Shown piece by piece: positions 6,401 through 31,400 of a stretch of DNA of 64,000 bases. This stretch comes from Lingula anatina (taxonomy: Eukaryota > Animalia > Brachiopoda), in contig CM120640.1 of the NCBI GenBank assembly GCA_051362555.1, forward strand, positions 65,326,788 to 65,390,787, in the 5' to 3' direction. Position numbers and translations under genes: made by a program. Position 1 is the stretch's first letter. Every line of letters begins with the position of its first letter. The notes beneath the pieces are model-generated. The model was not told the origin of the DNA, made no database searches, and was given only the letters and a program-made list of their open reading frames with translations.

Positions 6401-9400
6401 CGTTGCCAGATCTGGGCCAGACGTGGGCCAGATTACTGAGGCTGTCTGGGTATATAGCACCAACAGTTATTGCATGTACTACAACAAGATTGATTATTAT
6501 ACAATAAGATGATTATTTTACAAAAACATACCAAATCACTGAAGCCAAGTTTGCCTTCATCTATTTCTGACATCAAGAACTTTGAATTGTTGTTATAGTT
6601 TCCACTGTCATAATCAAAGTGATCATCAATCTGTAAACAGAGAGTTAAAAACTGCACAAAAATGTAAATATTGTGTTCTATACCACAAGTTGTCTACAAT
6701 GACATGCACAACAAGGTGTTTGTAGAAAGGCTTATGACTAAGAAGGTAATTTCACAGAAACAATAAGAATATTGTAAAATTAACTTTTGATACTTATACA
6801 ACAAAAGAAGATTCCCATTTACTCAGTTAATTTAAATGTATGGTCAGGGTAATGATGTAGTTTAAGCACCAAACCGAAGATAAAAGGCTAGGAGTAAAAC
6901 TATAGACTACTTTGACCAAAGATATAGTCAATAGTAATTCACATAAATTAAATATTGCACCCTTTTTATAACAATAAATAAATGGTTTCTGTTTTAGACT
7001 ATAATAGATCACTCTACTTTGGAGAACTATTGCACATGTATTCTGAATTGAAGCAGACTAAAACTGTGGTCATAGAGTTATTTTGTTAAGCTGGCCCAGT
7101 ACATTCATACTCTTGTCTACTTACACTGATAGGGGGTGGGAGCTCAGGTATCTCTTCTGGTGGGATGGTCAGCTTCTTCTTACAAAATGCACTTGTTCTG
7201 ATGAAGCGGCAAATATAAAAATTATTTATATGTTGAAATTTAATTTCAAAGGAAAGCCACAATTATGACCATGCACCCAGTTCAGCATATAAAGTCATAC
7301 CAGTACATGCAATAAAGGCGGATATCTTTACAGACTTGGTGACACCTGCTGACTTCATGTGATCTGTACAATGTAAGCTGGATGGAAAACTGGACATACA
7401 TGTAGAGCATGTGTATATTTTTTTAATAAGTCCACATCATTAACTGATCATAATCAAACTAATAAATTGACAGCAAAAGCTGCCAGATGCCTAAACTTCC
7501 ATGCTTCAACTTTAACATTACTATTCAATTACCAAAAGATTTAAAACTAAGACTTAGCACAAGTAAAATGCAATTAGTTCTAAAAATATCTTAATTAGTA
7601 CCATTTCAGATATAGTGATTCAGATGTGGAAAATTTCAGACACTAGTTATGGTTATATCCAGTTAATATATTTACAACACTTTGTGCCTTAAAAACAATT
7701 ATAAAAAATTTATCTGTAAAAATGCTTACCTGTAAACCATGAAGATGAGGAAGGCGATGCAAACGCCCCCTATGATACATCCAGCTACAATTCCACCCAC
7801 TACGCCATCTGGCAGTCCTGGAAAAAGTACACAAACATTACAATTTTTCCTTATATAATTCAATTAAAAATAAATATAACAGTATCAATTTTTGCTGATA
7901 GGACACAGAAACATGAAAACGCTCATGTGTGCAAACATACAGGGTAGAGACTCAATATTTGACTACTGTGCATGGCCGTCTTCTAAACTAGTATATAACA
8001 GTATACAATACCTCTATCTGGAGCATAAGCATCCCTATGGAGGCATTCTTGTAAACCAACTCAAATTCATGTTGGTTAACCAACATAATTACTTTTAACA
8101 AATGTACCTGGTTAGAGGGGAATTTTATAAAATTGTGGTTTCAATTAAAAACCATAAAAGGCCACATTCTTATGCAAAATGACAGAAAGTTATGTTCTCT
8201 TTGTTTTTGGTTTTTTAATGAGACCACAAATATTTCTCTCTACCCCTCAAGGATCTTTCGAATATATATAGTTTGGTTATTCACAGTTGACCTAATTCCT
8301 GAGCTCATACAGGCATGACAAAGTTTTCTATGAAACACAAAAGTGAAAGCTTCAAAGCAGTTATTGCAGAATATACAAGTCACCCAAACAAATTTGGGTC
8401 ATATACTCCTGGAATGTCTTGAAACTATGGCATTTTTTTTTACCACAGTATACTATGTGGTAAATATATTATACAGATCAAATTTTACTTGACATATATG
8501 TAATAATTGCATGGACACTCAGAAATTAGCAAAGTAAACCTTACATAAATCACCCTTGCATAAATGCAACACCTCTATGCTTTATCTTCTAAAGAAGCAT
8601 ATTCCATCCACACTATCAGTATCAGACCACTTTATCACATTAAGTAGAGACTCAGTGCAGTCCTAAATGCTTGCTGCTAGGGTCAGTTTCTAAGTATTGA
8701 TTTCTTTAGCTTCCCACAATTGCATCTTGTCCAAGGTTAGGATATTAACAAGGAACAATGTTCTGCTTGCAGCCTGTGTAATGGAACGTGCACTTTGCTA
8801 ACATTTAAAAAGATGTTGCAGCTGGTTTTCCTGGTACTGAGCTTGTGCAAAATTCTCAGAATTTCCAAGTTTAGGGAATTGTGGGTAGACACCAGGCGAT
8901 ACACGAGCATCCTGCGGGGATAAAACCTACATGACAAAATTTTGGTTATTGCTATTGGCAGTGGCAGACCAATTTATGTCAAAAAAAAAAAAACCACAGT
9001 AATGTTTGCTTTCTAGGAAAATGTCAAAAGGTCAAGCATTTAAATAAAAAAAATAAATAAATCACAAAAGAAAATAGAAATTCTGAGAAAAGCCTGCTTT
9101 AACCTGCCCATAAATGAAACAATTACTCAATAGTTCAAGGAAATAAAAGTTAGGAAATCAAGATCATTTTATGCTACTGCTCAGTACTTGAAATGGACTT
9201 TTTGGATGAGGTTTTCCAAGAAATTTATATGCCAGCGTTAAGTGGCATGTACTCCTTGACACTACTAATATATTCCCCTGGCCAATTCAGGCTGTTTTCA
9301 ATGCTGTTTGTGACAGGGAAATCTTGACAACAAAACACTTCTCAATTTAATATTACTACCATTTTATTATAACAAACTACACGTAAACACACTGGAGAGA

Positions 9401-11105: not shown

Positions 11106-14100
11106 TAATCTCACATAGGAAGGCAGAAATCATGTTTAAATAAGTCAGTCAAATATCTGGTGTTTTTCAGTCACTAAAAACCATCGATATGAGAATAGTG
11201 ATTCTTAGCCATGTGAACATTTTACAGTTGAAGGTAGTTTTTTTTCTGCTGTAGAGACAATTATTTTGTTCACATTGTCACAACATATGTGCTGGAGACT
11301 ATAATCCAGATAGATGAAAGATAGATTGACATTGCCATGGTGCACTTGCAGTGAAATAATAGTAAAAGTGAGAGGTTGAAAGAGGGCTAGTTTTTCTCCA
11401 CTTGATAAAATTGTCAGAGAATTTAAGGCTCAGGATGGTCTAGCAAGCTATATTATAAACTAATAATCCTACCAATGCTTTGCATCATACAGGTGCCATT
11501 TTTTATGACAACTCAAATAAATGACTGTCCTTCCCTCTCCTTCTTATCTATGCAGTTATAGATATTTATAATATAAGGGAATAAATCATTCATATAATAA
11601 TAAAAATGTGTACTTTTATGTGCATATTATACTTGGCTTGGTGGAAGAACTTAAACAATGCAGATGAAAGCAAGGAAAAATAGTCTTTTGATTATGCATT
11701 TAATCCTGAGAAATAAGAGCTTAGATTGTCGAGCTTTAGAAACTACGTAGAGAAAGCTTTGAGCAAGCATATAGGAAATCTGATTATTCTAAAGAGATGG
11801 CTGTATATAGCTTACGTCTGGATATGATTTAGAGATGATCTAGACATCTGCAAATGGTGACTTGATTTTTCTCGCTACACAGATATATTCTCCATTGCTG
11901 AAGATGAGATTCTCATTTTGTGAAACTTGCGTAAATACTTGTCATCTTCATGTTTGTCATTTACCATATGTTTGACTTAAAGTTACAAAAGAAGTCAAAT
12001 CTTTGCAACTTGACCCCATCAAATGGCACCATTTAGTTTCAAATTGCATAACTTTAAGAAATACCAAAGTGTAGCGTCTCATTATTCCTGAAAAGATATT
12101 TGATATTTGAACAGATATTTTCTTTCTTTCTTTCTGTGCTTTATACAACATTTTTCCAGCCCTTATGCTATTGTGCAAGAAGCAGTGTTATGTGTCACAC
12201 ATTAGTAAGTCATTTGGTAGACTTAAACGAACTTGAGAGACAGAAAAACAGTTTAAGTTTACAACCAGAAATTTGAAGAAGGCGCAGAATTAAAACTATT
12301 TTTGGTTGACCGTATGATTGGTTTATTCTTTGTCATGTTAATGGTTTAGCATAAAAAAAAAAAAAAAAACTAGCAGAAGTGGAGAATCTACGCTCCCTTA
12401 ACATGTTACTTCAAATGTTGTACAAGTGAACGTAATGAAGAGAGCAATATAGATGTTTATATGTCAAAATAGCCAATCACCTTTATGTTTCAGGATCTAA
12501 CTTAACATTCCTAGATATAGAAAGAGGGTCAAAGTCAAATATACACAGTGTTTGAGTAGACAGTTGTGTGCAAAGGTATATGCCCATGTCATATGGTCAG
12601 TTTAGTAGAATTCTTCATGGTTATCAGCTGCCCATGGAAATTAATTGAACCAAAATGCAAAACAGAAGTGCAAAACCATATAAAGAAAAAAATGAAACAA
12701 CTATACAGAAAAAGATGTTACAAGTAAACTGTCACAAATAAATTGGGTCGGTCTCTGGCTCTGAATAAACCAAAATAAGATGGTAAGGCATTCACCAAGT
12801 TAAGTAAAATATGGGCAGACCTGTTAGCTGACACATGTATGTCTCTTCCACATGGCTGAGTGGTCCACGCTGCTCCAGGCTGTTGATGGCTTGGATGCTA
12901 AAGTTAATGGCCATGTGCATCGTCTCCTCCGTACAGGGCATCACTTGAGAGTGTAACTTCCCGTCATGTGTCTGATACTTCTCCATGTCTGTCAGGGTGT
13001 CTATGTACTGTTCCTGGTAGCCGGCAGACGAGTTGATGTGCAAGACATAGCCTGTGATTGGTCCATTCCTTATAGGCGGTGGGTCCCAGGTGACGGAGGC
13101 TATCTGACCTGTGGAGCCTGTCACCTGGACCTTGAAATTATCTATCACACCTGGAGCTGAAAAACACAAAAACAGCATTCAATACACTCACTTTTATCTA
13201 TTGCACAGCAAAAATGCTTATATACCCCATACATAGTAAGCTAAGAAAATTTTTTGCTGTACCTAAGAATGACAAAAATAATACTTTCAAAAAGCAAAAA
13301 TAACCAAGAAACTTCCAACAAGTATGAAAACTTGATCTAATACTCGTTTGGCATACCATCAATACATTTTTTATCCCAGCATAATTATCTAGCTTCACAA
13401 TAATATGTTCCCCTTACCTCCAATGGTGGTATTCACTTCCAGGGGTGGAGACAGCTCAGAGCACTTGGTGCCATTATCTGTGCAAGCTGTCACCATGAAT
13501 TGGTAGCGTTTCCAACCCTCCAAGTTGTCAACAACAGCGGTCAACACGTCCCCCCTTGTGGTCATCACTGGACTGGACCGTCCTAACTGAAATACAGATA
13601 ATAACTGCCGTGACATCTCAGATCTGTATATGGAGTGATATAATGGTAATTAAATAATACTTAAACATGTACTATACTTGCCTTTTACAATAAGTGATTC
13701 ATATGAAGTATGGTATATGTACGATGCATGTATTAATCTTGACAAATAAGTCAGTGATTTTGCTTTTGTAATGATCTAGCTGAAATTTGTCTTTATTAAT
13801 TGATGTAAACTAAAGGTATGTTTGCAATTAATTCCGTGCACCTACAATGCTAATGCTACCATATCAAAATATTGTCAGAGTGATCAACACCCAAAACTTG
13901 CTAAAATAAATGAAACATTTATTATATCTTTTTAGTACTGAATATACCCATAGTGACTGCTACCTACCTCATATAACTGGTATTTGCTAACATTTCCATT
14001 GGGTTCAGGACTAGGTTCCCAGGCCAATGTCACAGAGTTGGAGGTAACTGCCTTCTGTCTCAATCCTGCAGGGGGCAGGCTTGGAGCTGGAACATAAAGA

Positions 14101-17100
14101 ATGTATTACTTCATTATGCTCTACATACTTAGGTGACCAGTGCCACTTTGAGTCTACCACTGAACCTCACCAAACTCTACCTCATGTCATTGTGGATTAT
14201 ACTAGATGTTGCATCACAGCAAACTACCTTTAAAACAAATCATTCATGTTTAAAATTGGAAAGATACAGTTCATCTACTACTCTGTGAAAGATTTTTCCA
14301 TAATGAGACCTGTGCACATGAGTGTGACCTGCAAACCTGGGTTTGACCTGCAAATCCAAGTGTGACCTGCGCATCAGGTTGACTTGCATACCCAAGTGTG
14401 ACCTGCAGACCTGGATGTGACTTGTATATACAGGTGCCCTATTATTGGTACAAGTCTTCAAAACTGTATGACAAGATGGTCAAACAGAATTGCATTTCAC
14501 AAAACTAAACATAAGTACCAACTGAATCTTTCAAAAAGAAAAGAAAAGAAACAGCAAAAGTAGTCAAAACTAAAGATCTACCTCTATAGAAATTATAAAA
14601 ATCATCCCTGAGCCATGACAGAAATGAAACTAATTTAAAGACTGGGTTCCCATACCTAGATCAATCTAACAGGATCAATCCATCTCCAAGGGGTTTCTCA
14701 CTAAATTGCTTTCAGCTTAAGCGGCTTAGATGTCTGGTATGCCTAATGAAGCTGCTAAACGATATTTAATTACCTACCAGCAGCTTCAGTAGGTGACATA
14801 CATCTAAGCAGCTTAAGCTGATTGCAATTTAGAGAGAATCCCCTTGGAGATAGATTGATCCACAGATAGGGTCTGGGAATGGTTCCTTAGGTTTACAAGG
14901 ACAGCATATGGCAAAACTTAACTACAATAAATTTCTCTCTTGATATCAAACTAAAAATCCAAACTGAAACAAAATCAGAGTGTCAGAGTGTACAGATATA
15001 TATAAGGCGCAGTAAACCTAACACAGCATAGCTATATAATCTCTCTTTCTTTGCAAGTGCATAATGTATAGGGAATTATATTCACTTATTCCTCCTCCAC
15101 TGCAGCTTATGCCTGGATAACAATTATCATATTGGTCACAGTTTGGTACAGGACTGACTTATGAATCCTTACTAGTGTGTTTTAGATGGCTATCTACCCT
15201 CTCCATCCCACTTCAGTAAATGATTAGGTACACTTGAAAGAATATTATGTCACAGGGCACATACCTGATTGCTGAGTCCATGCCAAAGTGTCATTAAATG
15301 ATGTAAAACGACCTCCACCTGCTGTAGTGACAGCCTGAATAGCTAGACCATAACGGGTGGCTGGCTTCAACCCTTCTATGATATAGTCGACATAGTCCTT
15401 GTCTTGATGTGGCACTGATACCGTGGAATACTTGCCTGTTTTTATGGCAAAAGAATATATTACAACGTTTCACTGAATTTTTTTAAGAAAAGTAATTTTC
15501 TTGCTACATGTATATTTCTCTTCAACATAAACAATGAAGAAAAAGGCAGAACGAATAATCTTCATGCTAGGAATACAAGTCAACTATCTCCTCACCTGTT
15601 TTACATTCTTCAGGATATTCGCAAATCCTTATGGTATAGTTCAAGATTTTGCTAAAAGCCCCCCTGGTGCAATCCAGTGCTAACCATTTTACATCTAGAC
15701 TTCTCTCTTTCTGCAGTGCATTCTCTTTTAGAGAGAATCCAACTGGGTGTATATCAGGAACTGAAATATATGCCAAACACCATTAGCAAAACACTTCAGA
15801 TCCTTAAATCTTATTATGGCTCTCTGAGCGAAAATTATTTTTAGCTAAGACATACAACAACAAAAGATGTAAGTTTGTGATAAACACAAAACCTGTAAAA
15901 ATGCAACAACTGGGTTAAAAATGGTGTGTTCACAATGGATCTATTGTACTAGCTAGTGTGTACTATCTCCACAGGGACTCTCATTGAATGCAATCAGATT
16001 AACACTCCTCTGGTTTCCAATTTACTCGTATAATCACCAGCTTTTCTGACTATAAAACTCAACACTGGGAATACTAGTTAAGGAGCACGTACAACAGTTT
16101 CCTTATTAACGCACTTTAAGTGTGACTATATAAAGTGTATATAGTTTGTTTACAAAGGTCTTTATCATTTATGAGGAGTACTGTAACTGTAACATAACAG
16201 TAACATTATGATAACAGTTGAGGGGCAAAGTCAAGGTATCTATTATCTCTAGTCTAACACTGGTGGTAAAGTTAGCTTCTCCAGTTCATCTTCATCTAAA
16301 AGAAATCTATCTCTGCACAATATCAGGCCTACCCAACTACCAGACTCGGCACCGAATGATCCAGAATTCACCGGTAAATCGGACCACACTACCCGTTTTC
16401 AAGGTGTGTATCAGATCGCATTACACAGTATCAGACGCGACACCGCTCTTGCCTAGTACGCGATGTGATAGTGACGATTCTTAGCGGGGTTGAAAAGCAT
16501 TGCATCACCACTCAAAATTTGTTCAGGGTATGAAACTGTGTAATGCGATCTGATACATACCTTGAAAACGGGTAGTGTGGTCTGATCTACCGGTGAATTC
16601 TGGATCATTCGGTGCCGAGTCTGGTAGTTGGGTAGGCCTGAATATATTTTTCTCGTACCTTCACAAAAATTTTAGTTACATTTTACATTTCATGGTATAC
16701 ATGACTGAAATAATTGGATCCCGCTGTACCTTTATCATAGAGATAGTTGCACTTGACGTGTGGCCAGACCATTCCACTGCTATAGAGGTCACTGTCTGCA
16801 GACACTGCAAACCTGTAGTTTCTCCTTACATCCTCACTGGCGGCCACATGGAGCTCGTAGGAAGTCACATTTCTAGGTACTTTCTGCCACAACAGATTGC
16901 CCTGGTCACAGATATCAAATTTATGATCTAATCGAATAAGGCTTCATTCACATGCAATGTCTATTTTCTAAATTCTATTTTCTATTCGCGGTATGTCTTA
17001 TGATCACGGTCTGTGCCCTGAATATCCCGCGGCGTAATTACTGGCAGCGCGAGCCAGTTACTATAAGTTACTATAAGTAACTGGCTAGCGCTGCCAGTAA

Positions 17101-18911
17101 TTACGCGGCGGGATATTCAGGGCACAGACCGTGATCATAAGATAGCGCGAATAGAAAATAGAATTTAGAAAATAGACATTGCATGTGAACGAAGCCTAAG
17201 ACTGTTTTATTGAGTCCTATCTGCCAGTCAAGTTTGATCAATATACTTTAATTCAAATCAATGCACAGCTTTACAAGAAAAAACAAAATGCAGTATATTG
17301 CTTTTCCATGAGATTATATCAATCGGTTCACTATGTACTTTTATAAAATATATCAGGCCAAGCACCACAAAAAGGACAATGCAATTTTGAGATATTTAGA
17401 GAACATATTCCCTTTAGAAGCACCTGTGTTTTATGTAGGTACCAAAGGATTATATACTTTTCTAGGTAATTGATTATTTTATGCATTTCCATGTATTTTC
17501 AGACTGAATACTGAATCAAGCACTTATTAGCAGTCTGCTTTCCCAGACGTACTTTATAAGATACAAGGTGACTGCAAGTGCATTTTAAAAGTTCATTTGG
17601 TACCTAGAGTCCATATGTTTCCTGCATCTGAGTGTAACTTGATTTTGAAGAACTAAAAGATTGCATCCTTTTCCAGTTTTTTTCTCTATCCAGAGCTATT
17701 TGCAATATGGGAGAAATGCACTCTTGACAATATCTGGTACATATGGAAGATACTGAACAGGTAGGTTAGTGGATTCACGGTCCATGATTTGTACTAAGGT
17801 GCTTGCAACATACAATTTTTATGTTCACGCCATAATATCGTAGTTTGAGTTGTTAATATTGGGCATTCACCATCACAAACCAGAGGCTCAATTTTGTGAA
17901 ATGCTAAATCGTTCATAAGACCTTAGACTAGAAAAGGAACTCAAAACCCATTGGACCTTCAGTGTTGCTATGAAAAATGACAGGAAGAAATAAGACCAGA
18001 TTTACAACATTTCAGACACGGTCACCAGAATAATAATTAAATCATACCTGACATCCAAACTCTGTATATTTTCCCAAGCACCAGTATATAGTGTACCCTA
18101 CCACCAATTCTTCTCTCTCTACAGGGGGTTTCCAGTACAAGTAGGCCACATTATCAGAAGACACTTCTATGTACAGGTCTCTCGGAGGTCCAGGACCTAT
18201 AATACACAGCATTTTAACATTTTAATGTTTAATGCAGATGAATTCGTTGTCTTTAACCTCTCCTCTCATTTGAAGTCAATTCATAAATACACTTTTCTCT
18301 TAATTTCTTCAAAGAGAAGCAATACTATTTCAGCATAGTATAATTAGTATTAATACATAAAACTGCTTACGTGTCTGCAGTGGGGCTATAGTGAGCACTG
18401 CATCACGTGTGGCTCTGCCAATGCGCGTCTCTGCGTTAACCTTAATGATCCATAGTGACCTTGGACTGGCATTATCAATCAGCGTCCAGGTGCCAACATC
18501 CCCCTCTGGGACGGAGCGAGCTCGGGATGGGTACTGGGCCAGGTAACTGTTGCTGACTGCAGTCACGGATGTCTCATTCCAAGAGATCTTGTAATTCAGT
18601 ATCATGCCATTCTGCTGCTGCCTAGGGATTTCCTGCATTCATAGAGAAATTTACATTAGAAAGGACATGGCGCGATGCTGTTAAAAAGAAGAGGTTTCAA
18701 ATGCTAATCTCATTTCCTGCACTCTCAAAAGATTCATTTCTCTCAAATAACCAATAAAATCCTCAGTGCTAAAGAGGGGTCAATCTTCCACAGACTAGGG
18801 CATATCAGATAGGACAACACAGGTAATACTCCTCTCTTTAATTGCTTTAATCCAACAGGTAAAAAATTATTTATCTTGTAAAAGAGCTTAAACCTATGAA
18901 ATAAGTGCACC

Positions 18912-18977
<66 letters not shown>

Positions 18978-21900
18978 ATTACCTGCCAGTAGACAAAAAG
19001 GTTTTGCTTTTTTATGTCATGTTGAAAGCAGCCGCTAGTGACCCCTGGAGGAGCAGCAGGAACTAAGAAAAAAGATTGCAACCGTATTAAGACAAACAAT
19101 AATATGAACACTTGTTCACTTCACTGTATATTTCAATATGTCAATTATTCTCAAATATTTCATTTCACTAACACATAATTGAGAGACAAAAAAAAAATGA
19201 GTTCTTAACAACACTTATTATTTAATTGTGATACACAACATTCTCAATCATGATATAATCATAGGAATCTCTCTCAAAATAAATAAACAAATAATATTTT
19301 ATCCTATATAAATGTTAAGCTTTGAAAATGACACAATGCATGGTCACCAGAAAGCAATAAAGGGGAGATACCAGTGAACAGATGGGGTTTCTATGACAGT
19401 GGACAGGTGTGAACCAACAGAGATAGAAAAACCGCAGTCAAGTAGGCAATATGGCACAGTCAAGACAGCGATTATTCTCTCTACTGATGACACTCAAAAG
19501 TTACATAAAAATAAGGGCATCCTTGGTCAGCAAACAAGTCCATTAGCTTTTGGTAGAATTCAAATCAAGATTTCCATAGAAAATCTCTTCATCACCACCA
19601 GTAATATATGCCTGATGTACATGTAGTGTCTATCAGTCATTAAAATAAGTGAACTTCTGGTGTAGCACAGCAAAAGAAAATCTTTCGAGACATCATAAAT
19701 TTGAAAAACAGATGAAAAGAATGGCCTGGTCTTACGATAGGAATCCCTACATCTAGTGAACATGATCTAAATGATATATATATATTTGCTGTTCAAACAT
19801 CTTAACTGAACTTCAGACAGCTACGGAAATAAGATATGTTTTTGAGTATTAATTCACAATTTGCTAGAAAGATTTGGAAAGATTTGGAATAAAGATGTGC
19901 TAGATGCAATATACTTACTGGACTCAGCTGTAAGTGCTGTAGTGTCCATCACATCACTCCAGTATTTCCCACCAAATGGCTGCACTGCCACTGAGATGTT
20001 GTAGTCAGTGTAGGGAGTTAACCCTCCAATCTCTACGGAGAAACTTTCGTTGTATCTGAATTCTGTCAAAATACGGACCTGTCATCAAGAAAAAAAAAAA
20101 AAAAAAAAACTGCAGAAGATCTCAGACTTTGGAAAATAAATAGCCTAAGTTATGATGAAACTTGATATTAATAATCAAAATAAATCCAGTTTGATAGAAA
20201 ACAGGAAAATAACAGTTTCAAATCCTGTTTCTTTATTTTCAAATTTCCGCATATGGGGGTTTATTTATGGAGATTTAAAAAAAAATAGGCACACATCAAA
20301 TCCAAAGCTCGATCTGGGCACAATATACTGAACTTAATCAAAAACAGTAGCATGTACAATTCTCATTATTTTTCAATGTGATGTACTGCAAATTTCTTGA
20401 ACAGAAAAAGTACTGTAGAATCTTTCCTTGAAGTTCTCTAAATATTTTAAAATTATTATTATTATTTTTTTAGAAATTATATTCCATATCCATTCATAAT
20501 CAACCACACCTATATTTCCGCTTGGCATCATCGTTGGTATATTTTCTACTAAGACAAAATTTCTTATTTGTGCCTTCTATCATAAAGTTCTATCAGTTTG
20601 TGTCATAATACTTCTAAGACATACCAAAATAAATTTCACACAATCTGCCCTTTTTTTTCCAAACCAAACCCAAGATATGAAAGGGAACCTGGATGATACA
20701 GGCAATTTGAGATAATCCCTAAGATTCCATCAGAAGCATTAATCAAAACTAATGAATGTTCTTCAGACAATGTCTTTGAAGCTAGCTATGATTCTGTGCA
20801 ATAACAGCCAAATGCTATTATGATGACTCTCCCTGCACCTGCTTCACCAGCCTAAATGGCTGCTGAACACTGGAAGTGAAATACAGCTTTTCTTTCCATC
20901 AACATCATTGTATTCAGGTTATCGGGACTTCAGTAAGCTACGAAATGTTTGTTGCTAAAGAGATGATATGCCTGGAATAACAGCAGAATTGTGGATTCAG
21001 ATTTTATTAAAAACAGCCAAGAAAATAAACAGAATAAAGAACATATAACAAATAAAAAGGATAAATGGAAGTGAGAAGTGACAACTCCCAAATAACCTAG
21101 CTTCATTATCATCACCTCTACTCATTTTGGCCAAACGGGTGATATATATATATATATATTCAATAATATGATAAAAATTTGTCTTCTCTTTTGAGTACAG
21201 TGTATACTAAACTGTTGGCCACCATAATGTGAAACTACAGTATTCTTCTATTCATGTATATGATCAACAATTCTAAGAAAACAACTGTCTGGTAGCAGAT
21301 AATTCTGCAAAATGTATTGCTATTGGACTAGGTTCATTTTCACACTTAGAAGCAGCTCATGTCAGTAAGTACAAAAAAGACACTGACATTTATTTTAAAA
21401 TAAAATTATAAGGTAATGTGAATGTAATACCTTGTGAATTTCTTCAACACTCAAAGTGCAAAGGGCAAGGTCTTTTTTGATTTTCTTTTTTTGCTAGATT
21501 CTCAAAAACTATTGTTTTGATTTAAAACAAAAACTCTCCCTTTTTTGAATCTGTAACATTTATTTTTGGCCATGTGAAAAAACAATAGGCATTATCCAAT
21601 CAATAAATGGCTTATTTCAATTTGTCTGTAAGAAAACCATTGTCTTCCTTTGTTGCCTATTTTATCTTAATCTACTGACTGGATAACTAGCCTGGGAGCT
21701 AAAAAAAAAAATAAAGGTTTAAAAAACATTTTATTGGACACTTTTGCAAATGAACATACACTACTGGTTCATAAACCCTAGACGTTATGCTCTACACTAA
21801 TGTATTTAAATTTCATTACATTCTTTTAAAAAAAATCCTGTTTTTTTTTTATCCTTTAAACTCGACTTCCAGACAACACTGTGTAAGAATTGAGATCAGG

Positions 21901-24900
21901 GTGTTTAACGGAATCAGGTAACGGAATGCTCATATTTCACTGGAATTTTAAGTCTGTTGTGGATTTTGATGTCAACTATTGCCAGTCATCCATTTTATCG
22001 ATCTCTCACTTTCACACAATCAACCTGTTTTTCTTCAGTCATCATTCAAAAGAGAAAGAAAACAATATAGAAAAACCTATTGTTTGGTTCAGTTCTATGC
22101 ACCATCTTTCTTGTAAAATGATATGAGCATATTTATGACATGCATCCTCTCTAAGATCCAACATAGATGCTGGATAATACATCCACCGATCATTGTTAGA
22201 TTCTTTTATTATTCATTTATTATTATAATTTTTTTTAATTTATCATTTCTTATCCATATTATGTGTTTATATCATGCATCCCCATATACAGCATATGATA
22301 GATACCAATACTGCCAAATTGTTTTTACTGGTAACTGAGATATGGCTATGGAATGAAGATTGAATAAGGAAAATTCAGGCAGGATAAAAAACAGAAAGAT
22401 ATTATACACAACCTGTATAAAATTCGACAAAATAAAGCTAGACATATTTCTTCCAAAGACAACAACCCTAGAAATCCACAAGTGATTAGGAGCTGTGTCT
22501 GCAGCCAGATCTCTCTTTCTGATGACTTCTGACATTTCACAAGAGGAACGTGGGATTGAATAAAGGGAATCTGTGATGTGATCAGACTGAAAAATCAATG
22601 CCTTCCAATGTTTATCTGTCTACAGGGAAAGCAAGGGGAATCCTGATATGCTGATTTGTAGGTTATACCTAGGCTACAGAAAATAATTCCTGCACATTAA
22701 GTGAGACTAGAGAGATCTGCTCTTCTCAAGGGAGAGGGGGCAACCTCTCATGCATGTAAAAACTGTCCACTCAAGAGTCATCCCAGCATCAAAATGCTCA
22801 ACCAACTACATATATAAAAAATATTTTTAAAAAGTATAACAAAAATTTTATGGCTAGTAACTCATCAGCAAAAATGAGAGTACCAGATTCAGACACCTAT
22901 AACCAGCAGTTTCAATGGGGGCCCTCTTTATGAAAAAGTGGACCTCTATTACCATGAAACCTTTTTGTACCTATGTTTACTCAGAGTAGACCTTTTCCCA
23001 GCAAAAAGGCCAATTAAGATCACAAAAAATGGAGCAATTGCAATTATCTCACATCTATGCACAACTGAAAATTGATATATATATTTTAATCATCCGCACA
23101 AGTATTAAAAATTCATTTGAATAACAGAAGTTGATATCTGCTCAAGAAATTAATAACAAGCAGAGAGCTAAATGCACAGTCAAAAAAAAAAAAAAAAAAA
23201 AAAATAATAATAATAATAATAATAAAAATAATAATAATAAAAATAACATACAACCGTTAAATTCAAAAGAAGTCTAAACTTTGAGAAGTTTGGTCAAATA
23301 ACTTCCACTCGTGACAACATATTCAATCATAATACTAACAGCATCTTGCAGATATAAACAATCTAGACTACCTGAACCGGATGCAATTTTTGGAAATCCC
23401 CGATGCAAACACATTTAACATTAAAGTAAATTAGTGAAAGTTCTCACCCATGTGTGGTTCCACTGAGATGTCCCAGTCAATCTGTAAACAAGGCCTGGGG
23501 CAATCTCTGGAGGTCCTAGCAAGATGGCCAGTTTGGGGGCAAGCCACTGCACTGTTAAAGCACTGCTCTTACCAATGACCGGAAATGCAGTCAGATTACG
23601 CACAGGGTTGGGCTTCACTGTGAAATCGGAAAATTGTTGTGATAAAACTGTTGCACAATGATTTTTCTGAGTTAAAATCAAAACCATGCAGAAAAAGTGT
23701 TTGAAATCAAATAATAATGTGCTGCATTAAAATAATTAAAAATTTTTGTGAACAAGGCATTTAAACAAATGATTGAAAGGTTCTTTTTAAACATACACTC
23801 TCTTGTAAAGTCTGTAAGTATATAAATAATTAATAAAAGGACAGTTAAGTCAGAGCAGTGAAGAAATGACATTTTATTTCCTTATCCAAATCATGCTGAA
23901 GCCATATACAAAATCATCACATGTCTACTTGATAGTCTTCTGCCTCCAGAATTGACATTGGTAAAGATGACAGACAAGAGCTCAAACAGCATATAGATAT
24001 AAAAATCAATGGAAAAATTGCACAAAAAATTAATCCCTGTGCACACATTGTGTTTAAATTTCCTTTTATCTAAAAACCATGGGTTGAAAGTAAAGGCAAG
24101 AAGACAGATGATGTTTAATGTATATTTTCTCAAATCACCCATGCTTATACAGTACATGCAAACACATAAAACAACAAAAGCATTGACAAACACTCTTCAA
24201 AAGCTCAAAACCTGTAAAGAAGCCTCATAGCAAGTTCCATTCAGTTTCCACTCTTGTGCATGAACATTTTCACACAGTGGCGTAGTTGTCAAGCATTTTT
24301 AGTCTATGCAGTTCTGCTACAGGAAAACTTGCTTCCTGCCTACATACATGCTATAGCACTTCAGTAAGCTAATTAGCACTTGTCATCTAGTGCTTTTCCA
24401 TGAAGAGATAATTAGACTCCTTTCAGCTTTGGTATTTAAAGAAAATTATCATTCCTTGTGTGGGCCATTATGAAACAATGTATATATACTACCTAAACAT
24501 GAATTATGCAAAAAAATATAGAATTAAATGCAAGTTGCATAAATGGTCACTTTCCTAAACATAAACCAGGCCAAAAGCACTTTGAAAAAATACAAACATT
24601 TCTATATTCTGGATACCTAGAAAACATGCAAGTTTAAAGGGAAACATCCAAAATAAATGTTTTTGAATTAAGTAGGTTTTTTTTCTGAGAAGGTTAAAAG
24701 CTGGCAAATCCATACATGCAAATATGTTTTAGGAAAAAAATAAATAAATAAAATAAACATCTCATCATTTTAAGGAATCTTACACAACATGCCTTTTTAA
24801 GAAAACTTCTATGTTAAATGACATGCCTTTGTAAAAAATTTAAAAAAAAACACCAAATGTAACTATGTAATGCTTAAAAAGGTCATTTAAGCCTGCTTCG

Positions 24901-27900
24901 CGGGGTTTTAAGAAGTAGTATATGTATCTATGCATACGCTTTGGCACATACAGGGTTGGCCATGCATAGAAGGGAAGTGTATACCTATGGAGGCATTGGT
25001 TAGAACTGTGGCGTTCAACCAACCTCTGCCCAGGGCATTATATGAGTTCAAGTTTATGTAGTAGATATCTGGCCGAAAGAATTCTCCTTTGGGGAATATA
25101 CACTCTGTGTAAGCACTGTACCTGGGGCACTCACATACAGTGGAATTCCCACTATAAAAAGGATTGAAAAAAAAAAAAAAACATCTTGATGATAATAACA
25201 AGTTACACAACTTTATTAAAAACCATGCTGGCATTCATAAAGTGGAAATCAGTAAAATGAAGGATGGTTCTTTTCTTCTGCATTATTAGACCAAAAAGCA
25301 ATTGGCATTTTTCACCATCAACCAAACACAGGGATAAAAGTATTGTATAATTTGAAAAGCTGCTTAAATATTTAGACAGATAGTTGTATATATAAGGTAT
25401 GGCAGTTGTTACAAATGATATTCATAGACAGTGCAAAAAATTCTCCAGGTAAATAATGAGAAGAAATGCCCATCACTGTTCAACCACCCACGCTGTGAAG
25501 AGGTGCGACTAAGAGAGAGCTCCAACACCCTGTGTGCAGTGATGTGTCTGACTGGCATACAAACACAGGGTTCAAGTGTTCAGCAATGAAATTACCCCAA
25601 GTGAGAAGAAAGGGAAAAAAAGCATAATTAATGAATAGATTAAAAATAAAATCATGCTCTCGCTTGGTTAACTTCCAAAGAGAAAAACCAATGCCACCAA
25701 GATTTGCCTTTGGAAAAATCCATAAATATGATCACTGAGACTCAAGACAAAAAATAACCTAGCTCAGTTATACATTAAATGAAAATTTATTACTCTCCAA
25801 ATGGCACTGAATTTAGCCTTTGGATGAGAATATAACCAAGCAAGAGCAACGCCTGAGAGTAAGACTGTGCAGCAGATCGGTGCTCAAGCCAGGACTGGCA
25901 GAAAATAAAGCATAAATAAGTGTTTAATTGTTGAAAAGAATTCATTAACTTTCATTCCTGTGGTAATTGTGTTTTGTTTTTTCTTTTCTTTTTCCTTTTT
26001 AACTTATACACTGGTGCCATAAACACTGATGAAACTGTGAGCACTGACAACCAGTACAACATGAAGTTGCCAAGAAAATAGTTCTGATACACAGTCAACA
26101 AATAAGTTCAATTGATTAAAAAATAAAAAAGTCATTAGTGTGTTAAATGTGTCCCACCACCAGTCTCCAACAGGTTTGAGCTGGCTAATTCTTACACTAT
26201 GAAAGATGTCAAAAGATGAAAGTTCTATATTGGTGTCTCGCAATCTTAACACTTAATTTGTTGCCGATTCATTTTGACTGGCATCTAATAAGCACAGCAA
26301 AAACCTTTGGAGAAAAAAGTGCTGCTACTGCAAACCCCACCATTTACCTATAGTTGCATTTGCCTTCTGTACATCAAGCAAAGTCCTCGAACCGAGAACA
26401 TTTGAGGCATTTACAATAAAAAAATATTCTGCGTTTGGCCAGAATGTATCCTGTTTATCATTCTCGACCCATGTACAGCTTGAAGAGCTCATGGATGGCC
26501 GTGGGCAAGGAGAAAAGGTTTTTTTTTTCCTTGAGCTGAAATGTGGAGGGTTAAAATGGACGTCAATTATCCAATATGACTGACGCATCATAAGCTTAGC
26601 ACAGGTTTAAGACAGGCTTACCTTGTTTAAGGAACAAAATGAAGTTAACATAACTGGCACCATACACAACTGCAATAAAACTGGCTATAGCATGCACACG
26701 TCAAAATTTATTCAGGGAATTATTTTCACTAACAAAGAATACTGAGATATCTGTATTTATTCAAATCATGGGTGTATCTATCATGTTAAAAGTCATGCAA
26801 AAATACATTATGTGAAAGTCAGTGTTTTCACACCAATTAGCTCCATAAGAAACTTTTATTTCACTCTAATGCTGTATATAGAACCAAAAAAAAGTTTAAT
26901 CAGCAAGTTAATACAGATAAGGACAAGAAGAGTGTAGACATTTTAGCTATTGATGACAGAGTAATAACTTACTCTCTACTCCAGAGTAGTTCATAGGTTG
27001 TCTTGAGGTAGGTTGTTCTCCCTGTGTTCCATGTACATGTCATGTTTTCCTGATTGTATGAAATGCACGTCAAGTTAGACGGGGAGTCAGGTGGGTCTGG
27101 AATACAATATTGTACAGTTAATGGGGGGCTCTGTGCTGGAGGCATCATATCAAATGGGAGAATGGAATCAAAGCCTGTAAAATAAGGTTCAGGTGGTCTA
27201 AATACCATTCAATGGTAGGGAAGGGAGTTCAGGGGGCAATAAATACAATGATTAAAAAAAATGGAGGGCATTTGTTTAGTTGCAAATATGTTACACAAAT
27301 ATTTCATGTATGCTTGCATGCAATTATACCCAAGTCCTAATGTCTGGCTTTTATCCTACATGTTCAGTAAGATCACAATACGCCTTGAAGACAATAAAAA
27401 ACCCTTATCTTCAAGTGAACAACTTACATCCAACTTGCACATACTGGCTGTTTATCCAAACCCCTGGCCCATCCCTAGCAGCCACATAACAATGGTAAGT
27501 TCCTGTGTCCTCCGGCTGCATGTCTTCCCTGGATAACCGGGCCACATGTTCGGAGAGAACTGTCACACTCGCATTAGAGAATCGCCTTGTTCCCTTGGTA
27601 AAGTAAATGTCACTAGCATTGTGCTGCTGCCCCAGGGAGCAGGTGAGGTTCAGGGTTGCCCCTACCATAACCACGGGGTCCTTAGGTGTCACATCTGTAA
27701 ATGATACATTAAAGTAAAATACATATCTACTATAAAGCACATAATATCCCACAGATAAAACAGGATCATAACTAAGCTCCTTCCCCCCCCCCCCAAGTAA
27801 TGCAGGGGCGGATCCAGAGATATTTTCTGACAGTCCTCCACATTATCTTTGTTGATCCATCTTCCATTTTTTGACTGTCTTCCGACAGAAAAAAATTAGG

Positions 27901-28445
27901 TACTCATCAATGTAAACTTAGAAATTTGACCGTCTTCTAGAAGACCCAGAAGACAACCTCAATCCGCCCCTGTAATGTAATATAAGCATAAAAATGATGG
28001 ACTGTTCACTGGCCAATTACAAAATAAACCTAGATCAGTCTTGGCTCATATAAATGTTACAGATTATATATATATATTTATGTTATAAATTTTAGTAGAT
28101 TTCTCTTGTGAAATAACTTCCGGGGCTCACATTGACAAGTCAGTCATGTGATCAAAGCCCTTTAAAATTCACGGTCTCTTCAGAAACATTTGGATGTTTT
28201 TTCTGCTGTGACTGCAAGAGAGTATATATCCTTATATTTCAAATGAGTCATCCATGAATCTTTAATTACTTTTAAATAATTAAAGATTCATGGATTCCTA
28301 AGAATAAAAATATTGGGAAAAGAAGTGACATACCAACACTATATAATACAAAAAAGCTAGAGCTCTCACCTCCCTCAAATCCACTAACAAAAGAATCCAC
28401 AGAGAACTGCAGTAGTAGAAAAAGGCTCAGTACATATATCATCAT
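2216..28445 (-). CDS. Class I cytokine receptor, gp130/IL6ST-/Domeless-like (whole spliced CDS span; about 1367 aa with exon 4a, 1360 aa with exon 4b)
   Basis: 19 GT-AG exons chain with matching phases to 4104 nt (4a) or 4083 nt (4b), both multiples of 3. Architecture SP-Ig-CBM (YPPDSPSNLTC...CTW; GKYWSD)-5xFN3-TM-Box1-like-tail with YVTQ. Confidence 0.93.
3616..6450. mobile_element. Non-autonomous TA-flanked DNA transposon with long, internally repetitive TIRs
   Basis: TA|CCCAGACAGCCTCAGTGATCTGGCCC... and ...GGGCCAGATTACTGAGGCTGTCTGGG|TA; arrays of about 11-bp GGCCCAGATCT-type units at 3630-3920 and 6225-6430. Confidence 0.85.
4638..6086 (-). mobile_element. Internally deleted Gypsy/Ty3 LTR retrotransposon nested in the TIR element
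   Basis: About 220-bp direct LTRs (4638-4853 and 5860 to about 6086). PBS TGGCGACGAGGAT at 5846-5858; PPT AGAAAGGAAGGGA at 4854-4866. Gag remnants RWLDSFNLFADGK and RRRALMLYSAG; protease LPDSGAYCNII; no RT or IN seen. Confidence 0.9.
6532..6630 (-). CDS. Coding exon 18: juxtamembrane cytoplasmic segment
   Basis: IDDHFDYDSGNY...GFSDL; tttacag| and TTG|gtatg; phase 0-0. Confidence 0.82.
7125..7197 (-). CDS. Coding exon 17: stop-transfer and Pro-rich Box1-like segment
   Basis: TSAFCKKKLTIPPEEIPELPPPIS|gtaagt; phase 2-0. Confidence 0.88.
7730..7817 (-). CDS. Coding exon 16: transmembrane helix
   Basis: GLPDGVVGGIVAGCIIGGVCIAFLIFMVYR; tttttccag| and AG|gtaag; phase 1-2. Confidence 0.93.
10225..10470. 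mobile_element. Degenerate inverted-repeat MITE; related fragments at about 15940-16070 and 36020-36090
   Basis: Shared core (ctctcactgaatgcaatcaga / gaaactatcgttcta) in both orientations. Confidence 0.55.
10507..10673 (+). mobile_element. hAT-like MITE family A, copy 1
   Basis: Homologous to 27803-27972; ends aatccgcccctg; flanks ttttc/atttc. Confidence 0.8.
12821..13156 (-). CDS. Coding exon 15: membrane-proximal FN3
   Basis: APGVIDNF...VTWDPPPIRNGPITGYVL...FSIQAIN; phase 1-1; weak donor G|gtctgc. Confidence 0.9.
13418..13586 (-). CDS. Coding exon 14: FN3
   Basis: VDNLEGWKRYQFMVTACT; phase 0-1. Confidence 0.92.
13968..14086 (-). CDS. Coding exon 13: FN3 (not in ORF track)
   Basis: APSLPPAGLRQKAVTSNSVTLAWEPSPEPNGNVSKYQLYE; phase 1-0. 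Confidence 0.92.
14305..14432. repeat. Degenerate minisatellite with a unit of about 18-19 bp
   Basis: Recurrent gtgtgacctgca core, 6-7 copies. Confidence 0.7.
14647..14880. mobile_element. Degenerate palindromic MITE
   Basis: Arms ggatcaatccatctccaagggg...cagcttaagc and gcttaagctg...ccccttggagatagattgatcc. Confidence 0.75.
15265..15435 (-). CDS. Coding exon 12: FN3 (not in ORF track)
   Basis: GKYSTVSV...YIIEGLKPATRYGLAIQAVTTAGGG; phase 1-1. Confidence 0.93.
15596..15760 (-). CDS. Coding exon 11: FN3
   Basis: VPDIHP...LDVKWLALDC...ILNYTIRIC; phase 1-1. Confidence 0.9.
16324..16640. mobile_element. Foldback MITE with CAGG...CCTG ends (hAT-like)
   Basis: Near-perfect arms of about 105 bp, CAGGCCTACCCAACTACCAG...; AATAT on both flanks. 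Confidence 0.9.
16730..16901 (-). CDS. Coding exon 10: FN3
   Basis: GNLLWQKVPRNVTSY...YRFAVSA...SSGMVW..C; phase 0-1. Confidence 0.9.
16940..17196. mobile_element. PIF/Harbinger-type palindromic MITE
   Basis: TAA|GGCTTCATTCACATGC...GCATGTGAACGAAGCC|TAA; almost the whole 257 bp is one palindrome. Confidence 0.9.
18048..18196 (-). CDS. Coding exon 9: FN3 (not in ORF track)
   Basis: RPGPPRDLYIEVSSDNVAYLYWKPPVEREELVVGYTIYWCLGKYTEFGCQ; phase 1-0. Confidence 0.92.
18371..18632 (-). CDS. Coding exon 8: FN3
   Basis: EIPRQQQNGMILNYKISW...VNAETRIG; phase 0-1. Confidence 0.92.
18916..18977. repeat. (GA)n microsatellite beside the exon 7 donor
   Basis: Direct reading. Confidence 0.95.
18983..19062 (-). 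CDS. Coding exon 7: FN3
   Basis: IPAAPPGV...LFVYWQ; phase 1-0. Confidence 0.9.
19919..20078 (-). CDS. Coding exon 6: second half of D3 with degenerate WSxWS
   Basis: GLTPYTDYNISVAVQPFGGKYWSDVM...TAES; phase 0-1. Confidence 0.93.
23448..23617 (-). CDS. Coding exon 5: first half of CBM domain D3
   Basis: VKPNPVRNLTAFP...LTVQWLAP...LVYRL; phase 1-0. Confidence 0.93.
24985..25151 (-). CDS. Alternative exon 4b: second half of D2 (paralogous to 4a)
   Basis: DGNSTVCECPRYSAYTECIF...YYINLNSYNALGR...ASI; long poly-T tract plus tatag| and ATAG|gtatac; 167 nt; phase 2-1. Confidence 0.87.
26348..26535 (-). CDS. Alternative exon 4a: second half of D2
   Basis: DSRKKKTFSPCPRPSMSSSSCTW...YFFIVNASNVLGS...ATI; ttcag| and ATAG|gtaaat; 188 nt; phase 2-1. 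Confidence 0.9.
26973..27096 (-). CDS. Coding exon 3: first half of cytokine-binding domain D2
   Basis: YPPDSPSNLTCISYNQENMTCTWNTGRTTYLKTTYEL, the C...CxW motif of gp130-family receptors; phase 1-2. Confidence 0.95.
27428..27694 (-). CDS. Coding exon 2: Ig-like domain
   Basis: VTPKDPVVMVGATLNLTC...EDTGTYHC (DxGxYxC Ig motif); acag| and T|gtaag; phase 1-1. Confidence 0.95.
27803..27972 (+). mobile_element. hAT-like MITE family A, copy 2
   Basis: TIR CAGGGGCGGAT...ATCCGCCCCTG; 5-bp TSD TAATG. Confidence 0.88.
28370..28445 (-). CDS. Coding exon 1: signal peptide MMIYVLSLFLLLQFSVDSFVSGFEG
   Basis: GCTGCCATG Kozak context, hydrophobic core, donor G|gtgag in phase 1. The exon starts at acceptor ttcag|28483, so further 5' UTR exon(s) lie upstream. 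Confidence 0.88.
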
Positions 28446-28458
28446 GGCAGCTCTGGAG

Positions 28459-28476
28459 TCACATGGACGTTGTCAT
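28459..28476 (-). promoter_or_regulatory. uORF MTTSM* just upstream of the main ATG
   Basis: AAG ATG ACA ACG TCC ATG TGA, ending 13 nt before the start codon in the same exon. Confidence 0.7.
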
Positions 28477-31400
28477 CTTGGATCTGAAATATAAGAGAAA
28501 TATCAAGTGCTGTTGTGTTAAGTTAAATAAAACTGGTTTTGACAAAATTTTAATATCAAATCTGTATGTGTACATTCTTCAGCTACAATGTACCAGCAAA
28601 TAAAAAATACTAATAGTATACTGTTACAAGGAACAAAGCAAATTACAGATAACTCTAGCATAATTATTAGTTTCAATCTAAAGCTCAGTCACTTGATCAG
28701 TGAAAAGGCACTCTGTCATCACATTATCTGTCAGAAAATAGGTGTCGATCTCCTTTTCCTGACAATGAAGTTCTGTCTGATACATAAATGTGTCTCTGAT
28801 GTCTGTGGGGAACCAGCAGTATATTCTGTTACACTAGTCTCAAATCTGAAAGCCTATCTTAAATTAATTGTAAAATGTGCTGTGGTTCACCACAATCTTT
28901 AACGAAACAATCGCCTTGTTTGACTGAAATTATGTGGACTCTATATGGGCACCCTTAGCAGTGTATGTTGTAATTGGCTTTTTGTCCATCAATAAGAAAA
29001 CTAATCTGCTTAAGTTTACCAACTTAATCATACCCCCAGCAACAAGTAATAAAACAATTAAACCTCAACAAAAAGTCAGCAATGAGATGCTCTTTTTCAA
29101 AATCAATATTTTGCCAGAGATCTTTCTTCAATTTTCATGACAATTTCTGTTATTGATGTTTCTTTCAGTAGAAAGTTTCACATCATAGAAGGAAGCCATA
29201 CAGCTCTCTTGGAGGTAGATTAAGCACAGTGATAGAATAGATAAGATTTGGGTTGCTGTAGCAACTCACTGGGTTGCCTTGGTGACAAGCGTAACAAAAG
29301 AAAGTGATCCTGTTACTGAGGCATCTTTTGTCAGTACCAACCTATAAGCTGTCACATCAACAGTGGTCACTTTTTTTTACTTTTCCTGAACAAGAACAAA
29401 AATATATAAAGGTCATTTGCATTTTGCAATGAAAGAATATGTGGCAATTTTTACTAAATATATAGAACAACTTCATTCCAAAATTTGATAACCCTGTCTA
29501 GAGCACCTGTGACATTTTAATTTGCCAAATTGAAACTTTGCTATGTGCACCCATTTTTAACAGACTAAAAATAATTTTATTACATACAGAATGACTAAGG
29601 AATTTGTATTATCTTATATTTAAGTGATTTTACCACTCATTTCTTTATTGCTTCATGGTAAAGAATATTTGAGTACAACTTCTGCACAAATACCTCAATT
29701 ATACATTAGAACCCAAATCAGGGATTAAAGTAGGGAAACATGATGTGGTATTGTAACAATCAAGAATCTTTATGCGTGACTTAAACCCTGTTGTTGACAC
29801 CATCAAGAACATGGTTTACAGCATAACAAACTATAGGATTCCAGGTTTGAAGCTTCCGAAGTTGTGCTCTAGACAATATCAGACCTCTTAAACAAAATTA
29901 GTTGTGGATTTGTGGTTGCAATTGTCAAATTAATGACTTAAACCGCAATTTCATGACCTGATTGCAAAATTACCTATAGCTGCAACCAAGCTACATATTT
30001 ATAGATGGCCTGGATACTAAATGGGTCACAACTCTGGTGACTGCTTTATCAAAAGCACCACTAACCAAAAATGACCTATTCTTTCATAGTCCTTATAATC
30101 TCATTTCTTCCCATTCAAACCCAACTTGGCTTTGTACTCTGGGGATATGAATATTCCAGTCACATACCTAACTTTCTCTAATAGACTTTCTCTCAAAACA
30201 CACATTGCTTTTAATCACATCTGTTCAAGAATTTTCTAAATGAAGATGTTATAGGTATAGCAACCAGAATGGCAACAACTGGACCAACACAACATGACTT
30301 AACTCTATCATCTAAAAGGTAAATTGAAGACCCTATCAAAGCACATTGCGCTAGCAACTCTGTCACATACCTGACTGACCTGAACAAAAATTATTTGCAT
30401 TCTTTTATAAGAAAAAAAGCACTATTTTAATACAATCGAAATCTAAATCCTTTGCGAATTGCTATAATGTATCATTTTAATAAATCTTTAAAACGTGATA
30501 ATTTTTTTCGCCTCTCTAAAGATCTAAGGCAGCTTACTCCAAAACTTTGGAGCATAAATTTATGGTTCCACCATATCTATCTACATACTTTTCCAAAGCT
30601 GACAACATAAAAACAAAATTGTTTTTTAGTTGTATAGTTATCTCGGCTTTCACTTTTTTATTTCTTGTCAGAACTGTAAAAAAAAAAAAAAAGACCCAAT
30701 AATATCTGAAAAATACATACATTTCCAAGTAAAGCCCCCAACAAAACTGGGATTCAGTGTTTTTCAACAGGTGTCATGTTCTCAGTCTCTGAAGCTCTCA
30801 GTCATAATGATGCTTTTTACCATGGATGACAACCATAGCAACAAGGTACACATTCCCAACCTATCTCACAAGTAATACTGTCTGTCACCTTTTAAATCAC
30901 ACATATCACAACTTACCAGACATGATTTGGTGCTTGTCACTTGAGAGTGAAGTATGAAGCACTGGGCCACTGCTGCACCACTTCAGATGTGATAAATATT
31001 TCCAAGAAATGAGCAAATAAAAAAAGGTATATAACTGCAAACAGCAAATGGCTTCTGTGCTCTTGCCTTACATGTTCAGAGATCAAACAATCGCAAGCTA
31101 TTTTTCTTCATCAAAACAATGGTAATTCAGCACAAATACAGTAAAATCTGATAGTTCCTCCATATACTGAATCTATTAGGTTAAAGTAAATGTGTACTTG
31201 ATAAAAAGAAAAAAAGGCCAGAAAAAAAGAGAAAAGATAAGTTGGCTCACAATTACCTGGGATGCTATTTATTGGAAAGAAGTAATTAAGGTTGAATAGG
31301 TCTGATTCTTTATGGAGTCTTTAATGATTTTGTAACATTTCTGCAGTAATAATACACTGAAGTGTTCCTACATAAATGTACACTGTGACATGTAGGCCAA

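Follow-up and report, generated by a model that had tools for sequence, protein, structure and literature searches.

The question raised by this locus is whether a single brachiopod receptor gene, through the choice between two neighbouring exons, makes two receptors that meet their ligands differently. The window (the whole stretch of Lingula anatina DNA that was analysed, 64,000 nucleotides long) carries a receptor gene that resembles gp130 and Domeless, and an initial annotation had singled out two exons lying between exons 3 and 5 of this gene, here called 4a and 4b, as mutually exclusive duplicates that swap part of the cytokine-binding module.

Re-reading of the sequence bears out the coordinates, lengths, AG/GT ends, phases, open frames and D2 motifs that had been given for the two exons (Table 1). 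Exon 4a is 188 nt long and exon 4b is 167 nt long; each is flanked by AG and GT, is entered in phase 2, is left in phase 1 and has an open frame. The joined sequence of exons 3, 4a and 5 is open, as is that of exons 3, 4b and 5, and together with exons 1-3, 5 and 6 either copy alone keeps the frame. The claim that including both copies or skipping both breaks the frame also holds: when both are included a stop is reached at 25056 within 4b, and when both are skipped a stop is reached at 23598 in exon 5. The two are adjacent homologous exons of equal phase, and the frame stays intact with only one of them.

The peptides of 4a and 4b are identical at 18 of 57 aligned residues, and their alignment score was reached by 5 of 10,000 shuffles. 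A profile built from 137 homologous segments, with 4a and 4b left out (the homologues themselves had been gathered with a query that contained 4b), gives two significant places in the six-frame translation of the window, and these are 4a (E 7e-10) and 4b (E 3.5e-6), with family-profile scores of 35.7 and 23.8 bits, respectively; no third copy of the exon was found with this profile across the six frames of the 64 kb. (When searched alone, neither 4a nor 4b is recognised by Pfam, and a protein search with 4a alone matched none of 15 candidates.) At the level of sequence, these comparisons confirm that 4a and 4b are homologous, each encoding a version of D2's second half. The loops between the conserved motifs had been described as completely different, which goes too far, since an aromatic-x-Pro patch is common to both (TFWPN in 4a, FFRPD in 4b).

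Table 1. Exons of the receptor gene, in order of transcription, with positions in the window
Feature	Position	Strand	Support
Exon 1, first coding, ATG at 28445, predicted signal peptide	28370..28483	-	
Exon 2, Ig-like domain D1	27428..27694	-	Pfam Ig_3 E 1.4e-7; RNA joints
Exon 3, first half of D2, C-x9-C-x-W pair, ends phase 2	26973..27096	-	Pfam IL6Ra-bind E 1.6e-6
Exon 4a, alternative: second half of D2, long-loop version, 62 residues	26348..26535	-	RefSeq X1
Exon 4b, alternative: second half of D2, short-loop version, 55 residues	24985..25151	-	RefSeq X2
Exon 5, first half of D3, starts phase 1	23448..23617	-	Reads and RefSeq mapping
Exon 6, second half of D3, degenerate WSxWS (YWSDVM)	19919..20078	-	
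Nine further exons, membrane-proximal fibronectin type III domains	12813..19060	-	RefSeq protein mapping, Pfam fn3
Transmembrane exon and next exon with proline-rich Box1-like stretch IPPEEIPELPPP	7125..7817	-	
Last coding exon: cytoplasmic tail, YVTQ (YxxQ) near end	2216..3451	-	

The gene as a whole is a class I cytokine receptor of the gp130/Domeless type, as judged from its cysteine pattern, architecture and fold, although its WSxWS motif is degenerate. Its Ig exon matches one cluster of 133 candidates, a Lingula anatina 'cytokine receptor', and the three members of this cluster are isoforms of RefSeq LOC106181055, namely X1 (four accessions), X2 (one) and X3. These are products of the same gene and come from automatic annotation that is silent on exon homology and structural position. 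When the RefSeq proteins are mapped on the window, isoform X1 uses 4a and isoform X2 uses 4b, with no other difference between them. Isoform X3 joins exon 3 (26994-26973) to 23617, skipping both copies; its ATG lies within exon 3 but in a different reading frame, which gives a receptor that lacks the signal peptide, D1 and D2, and this form was not seen in the four RNA runs that were mapped.

The class I motif is described as two D2 cysteine pairs, CX(9-10)-CXW-X(26-32)-CX(10-15)-C (PMC1963337). Here the D2 cysteines read C125-X9-C135-T-W137, followed by X28-C166-X9-C176 with 4a or X26-C164-X8-C173 with 4b; both pairs are present, and the last spacing is 1-2 residues shorter than in that motif, being 9 in human gp130 as well. 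YWSDVM sits where gp130 has YWSDWS, with the second W and the S replaced, and loose ends of 31 exon-5 reads (run X4) map to exon 6, which encodes it. Like gp130 (IL6ST) and Domeless, the gene has an Ig domain, a cytokine-binding module, FN3 repeats and one transmembrane helix, together with a gp130-like predicted fold, a YxxQ and a putative Box1-like stretch; unlike gp130, which has three membrane-proximal FN3 domains, it has about five. (The Pfam fn3 matches lie mostly under the cut-off because the exons hold half domains.) The YVTQ is at residue 1339 of isoform X2, and the only alignment to place the proline-rich juxtamembrane stretch opposite gp130 IWPNVPDP is not significant. Among PDB sequences the gene matches gp130 best (E 8e-25), and a word-based search with residues 25-330 of isoform X1 returned nothing beyond the gene itself and two receptors of flies. 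In a quickly built tree of 26 ectodomains, from which the swapped columns had been removed and in which three vertebrate labels were inferred from sequence, the gene falls in a protostome group with mollusc and arthropod (including insect) receptors (SH-aLRT 99), as sister to Lingula LOC106177096 (96).

AlphaFold2 models of both isoforms, which the initial annotation had proposed, were made from the N-terminal 329 residues (4b form) or 336 residues (4a form) with 76 homologues each. With a mean pLDDT of 91.2 and 89.3, respectively, the two forms are predicted to fold as gp130 D1-D3: both models match gp130 D1-D3 from cytokine complexes, and where gp130 D1-D3 chains occur in the top seven matches their target TM is 0.77-0.83. 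Exon 4 supplies the second disulphide pair, the last D2 strands and the linker to D3. The loops by which site IIA of gp130 is reported to touch IL-11 are 142-147 and 164-172, and W142 and F169 matter for this contact (PMC10662374), and Phe169 is also reported to contact IL-6, vIL-6 and LIF (PMC7378365). When the sequences are aligned to gp130, loop 142-147 corresponds to the junction of exons 3 and 4 with the first part of exon 4, and loop 164-172 lies in mid exon 4. So aligned, exon 4 covers nearly all of both loops by which gp130 is reported to grip IL-11, and the placement of the swap on ligand-contact loops is backed by this alignment and the gp130 contacts. The first loop has a basic RKKK run in 4a only; the second has about 12 residues in 4a (ENDKQDTFWPNA) and 9 in 4b (PKGEFFRPD). 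By this correspondence the Lingula receptor would use a gp130-like surface for its ligand. (The register around gp130 Phe169 shifts between alignments of 4a and 4b, and a single residue equivalent to it was dropped because of this instability.)

Evidence for the use of the two exons comes from RNA. Nine raw-read runs are filed under the species label, and four were mapped (runs X1, X2, X4 and X7), with 6 to 25 in 100 of each run used; a joint was listed when at least 3 reads from 2 starts crossed it. The joint between exons 2 and 3 (27428>27096) is present in all four runs. In run X4, exon 3 is joined to 4b (26973>25151) by 8 reads with 7 starts, and 4b is joined to exon 5 (24985>23617) by 21 reads with 13 starts; 0 reads enter 4a in this run, and the depth is 20.1 in the 4b bin and 4.1 in the 4a bin, the latter near the 2.3-2.7 of neighbouring intron bins. 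The opposite choice is seen in runs X1, X7 and X2, in which 4, 2 and 1 reads, respectively, join exon 3 to 4a (26973>26535) and 0 reads enter 4b. Support for 4a thus consists of 7 entry reads, and the full 4b path comes from one run. The joint from 4a to exon 5 (26348>23617) is not listed in the four runs, in which the depth of 4a is low relative to the listing threshold. The joints from 4a to 4b and from exon 3 to exon 5 are not listed in the four runs either, which, given the listing threshold, carries little weight for the low-depth runs. Three of the four junctions that had been put forward for the two paths are therefore seen in the reads, while the fourth, the exit from 4a, is absent from the reads but present in RefSeq isoform X1. 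The proposed alternative use of both exons is likewise backed by the reads and by RefSeq isoforms X1 and X2, except for this exit joint, which the reads do not contain. Taken together, it is very probable that both full-length isoforms are made.

By run, the exon choice is 8:0 for 4b against 0:7 for 4a, a comparison in which study, library type and genotype are confounded. The switch between runs need not be tissue regulation, and run X7 has a diverged haplotype. (A Fisher test on the joint counts, p 1.6e-4, was set aside because the reads of one run are not independent.) Among the 40 rows shown of 124 read differences, 18 lie in coding exons. Those in exon 5 (9 of 9), 4a (1 of 1) and exon 3 (1 of 1) are synonymous, 6 of the 7 in exons 1-2 change a residue, and 4b has none among the rows shown; the lone synonymous difference in 4a is only a hint of constraint on that exon. 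Run X7 differs from the window at many sites (23466-23565 and 28391-28468), including the 9 synonymous ones in exon 5, which suggests a diverged population or a cryptic species under the same label. Within the intron between 4a and 4b, at 25655-26004, run X4 has a depth of 6-7 on the gene's strand with no listed joint, as might be given by a retained intron, a cryptic exon or a repeat. A non-coding upstream exon ending at 51812 (minus strand) joins exon 1 over a 23 kb intron, with 17 loose-end reads in run X4.

The same segment was compared among related receptors, using protein models rather than genomic DNA. A HMMER search gave 472 relatives, and clusters were checked for 20 of the best 150 of these. 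Eleven of the 20 clusters have a single member, two (scallops, octopuses) have no within-species pair over the region, and seven contain isoforms of the same species. Among these seven, two vary in the D2 segment and one in D3; the other four (Mytilus, a Branchiostoma lanceolatum paralogue, Lingula LOC106155932 and Argiope) have no swap in the cytokine-binding module. The first of the D2 cases is an amphioxus receptor, from Branchiostoma belcheri and a hybrid, for which six members present four versions of the second-half segment; its isoforms include XP_078684363/366/368 and XP_019647412/416. Isoforms from one assembly differ at 25-46 columns inside the segment and at none outside it, and two of the versions recur unchanged in a second assembly; isoform numbers reach at least X10, and this receptor may have versions beyond the four. 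The amphioxus segment has the same boundaries as that of Lingula, with N or K as its first residue and its end before V-K-P. N and K share two bases, which fits a phase-2 intron at the amphioxus boundary. These database gene models suggest that the exon switch also arose in amphioxus.

The second D2 case is the sister gene, Lingula LOC106177096, in which isoforms X1 and X3 have two versions of the segment and no downstream difference. Isoform X3 is a 5'-incomplete model that starts just upstream of the segment in an apparent intron end, and this gene probably has two copies of the exon. In the hemichordate Glandiceps talaboti, isoforms X1 and X2 of LOC144436643 exchange one version of the second half of D3 for a homologous one; the swapped part takes in the WSxWS stretch, and 33 columns differ at 267-318. 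On the other side of the membrane, Domeless isoforms of three Mytilus species swap a homologous juxtamembrane Box1-like segment (KPYDIILPN or KPYDIDLPN), and one Mytilus Domeless model holds both segments, which suggests a duplicated exon on the JAK-binding side in the Mytilus models.

The initial annotation had proposed that the Lingula duplication is old, and the distances support a duplication that is either old or fast-diverging: 4a and 4b are as distant from each other as from the exons of other animals, with a sibling rank of 42 and 15 of 139. In a tree of 42 rows and 55 columns the two are sisters (95/72, a node that is not starred), with 2.1 changes per column along the path between them; the support for a group of the four amphioxus copies is weak (39/77), and the AU test does not reject a tree in which 4b pairs with the short one of these (p-AU 0.15). 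The trees weakly favour separate duplications of the exon, and an ancient duplication with later losses is an alternative origin that they leave in play. That the three D2-swapping genes share one origin as a gene clade was rejected (p-AU 1.4e-9).

The best explanation of the locus, to which we assign a probability of about 60%, is that transcripts enter either 4a or 4b and so likely yield two full-length receptors that have different predicted ligand-contact loops and likely differ in ligand affinity or choice. The exons are two tandem copies, since diverged, of the exon that encodes D2's second half, and the spliceosome would pick one of the two acceptors, most likely in a manner that depends on cell or stage. 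An early stop that lies many introns ahead of the last exon makes a transcript prone to nonsense-mediated decay. The stops in the both-in and both-out transcripts lie in such a position, so their decay is expected, and this would clear the faulty products. D1, D3, the stalk and the JAK/STAT-type tail would be common to the two receptors, which would be set apart by their predicted ligand-contact loops; presumably each would respond to ligands of its own, or to shared ligands with a different preference, and signal through one and the same JAK/STAT tail. Exclusivity would come from competing splice-site choice. Steric exclusion is ruled out by the 1,196-nt length of the 4a-4b intron, and U2/U12 incompatibility by the finding that all introns here are GT-AG. 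A search for pairing of a docking site with selectors at 23600-27000 gave 48 inverted pairs, mostly short or A/T-rich and none persuasive, in a comparison made with no chance control.

Other readings accept the exon pair and differ on what it is for. One isoform might bind ligand poorly or not at all and serve as a full-length damper or dominant-negative, so that the switch would set sensitivity, much as Drosophila Eye transformer/Latran does, here via splicing. The short Et/Lat receptor is reported to be unable to bind ligand and to dampen Dome signalling (PMC4751595), and the 4b loop is shorter and its family-profile score lower. However, neither copy has lost the core cysteines or N-x-L-G, the predicted folds are equally good, short and long loops are both found among ordinary single-copy homologues, and the four amphioxus versions exceed what an on/off device would need; this makes a damper unlikely. 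The copies might instead be functionally equivalent and be kept by a split of expression over tissues or stages, the divergence of the loops being drift. This would agree with the finding that 4a and 4b resemble the exons of other animals at least as much as they resemble each other, and with the variability of the loop columns across the family, but the exon has also been multiplied in the amphioxus receptor and probably in the Lingula paralogue, and the two most similar, and youngest, amphioxus copies differ mainly in the ligand-contact loop. Drift between equivalent copies is accordingly rather improbable.

A further reading would deny 4a a place in the receptor: transcripts would end in it and yield a short, secreted Ig-D2 fragment, or it would lead to decay, and only 4b would make the receptor. 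The missing 4a-exon 5 joint fits this, as does the zero depth on exon 5 in run X1, the run with the most 4a entries, and read-through from 4a is short, adding GKWWGLQ and then a stop. Against this, the listing of a joint needs 3 reads from 2 starts and the entry reads per run number only 4, 2 and 1; runs X2 and X7 cover exon 5 without any 4b joint; the depth drops to 0 just beyond 4a in runs X1 and X2; and the GT donor of 4a is in phase 1, at the position homologous to that of 4b. In addition, the 4a form has four RefSeq accessions against one for the 4b form, and the sole listed read difference in 4a is silent, all of which leaves a terminal 4a quite improbable. Least probable, and very much so, is diversity driven by parasites, in which alternative loops would help the receptor to evade mimics made by microbes or to sense variable activators other than cytokines, for example lectins. 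Shrimp Domeless is said to be activated by a C-type lectin (PMC13203501, citing earlier work), and deep divergence with repeated duplication would fit an arms race; the gene, however, has only two copies.

A choice between two receptors of different ligand contact has a precedent in the IIIb/IIIc exon switch of the FGFRs (PMC5703972, PMC8373072), with the difference that in FGFR1-3 the switch is in Ig III of a tyrosine kinase and in Lingula it is in a fibronectin type III domain of a class I cytokine receptor. gp130 itself is reported to bind many cytokines through one rigid surface (PMC7378365). In a supplementary catalogue of human tandem exon substitutions, FGFR2 is present and the names IL6ST, LIFR, OSMR, IL12RB2, CSF3R, LEPR, PRLR, IL31RA, IL23R, IL6R and CRLF are absent. 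The exon arrays of Dscam1 consist of mutually exclusive half-domain exons that vary the recognition surface of an invertebrate receptor. The Lingula gene is alike in switching a half-domain exon, whereas Dscam1 has dozens of copies, Ig domains, homophilic binding and docking-site RNA pairing.

The initial annotation knew of no such arrangement in gp130 or Domeless. A literature search, of sources available in part, turned up no report of exons that are duplicated or used exclusively of each other in gp130, in Domeless or in a cytokine receptor of an invertebrate (supplements of genome and splicing papers may list them), and a 2026 survey, which places canonical IL-6-family cytokines only in vertebrates, does not mention isoforms in the text available (PMC13203501). 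In this respect the claim stands, but the isoforms were already present as RefSeq X1 and X2, and this gene is not alone in having the pattern. The splice forms are thus in the automatic annotation and apparently otherwise undescribed. What would be new, on the sequence models compared, is that an amphioxus receptor has four versions of the segment and the sister Lingula gene probably two, and that the swap in a hemichordate is in D3.

This recurrence is more interesting than the one gene. Tentatively, the second half of D2 could be a recurrent hotspot for splice switching, brachiopods and amphioxus (with four or more versions) each having duplicated the exon, so that one gene gives a small panel of receptors for different cytokine-like ligands. 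If so, splicing does in these animals what vertebrates did by duplication of whole receptor genes. If the recurrence holds at the genome level, class I cytokine receptors join the FGFRs in repeatedly duplicating a half-domain exon for ligand recognition. Few ligands of gp130/Domeless-type receptors have been identified outside vertebrates and arthropods, and the isoform pairs offer matched baits and controls for finding them; pairs that differ only in predicted contact loops predict more than one such ligand in these animals.

The window also contains several repeats. Between exons 1 and 2, a short intronic repeat at 27800-27970 attracts hundreds of reads that match it in part, in all four runs, and a similar stretch seemingly lies near 10600 and 59150. 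The six-frame listing shows a non-coding, intronic repeat of tandem units in two places (3593-3941 and 6153-6512), an inverted pair of non-coding intronic elements at 16215-16671, and a direct duplication, also non-coding and intronic, at 33402-34679.
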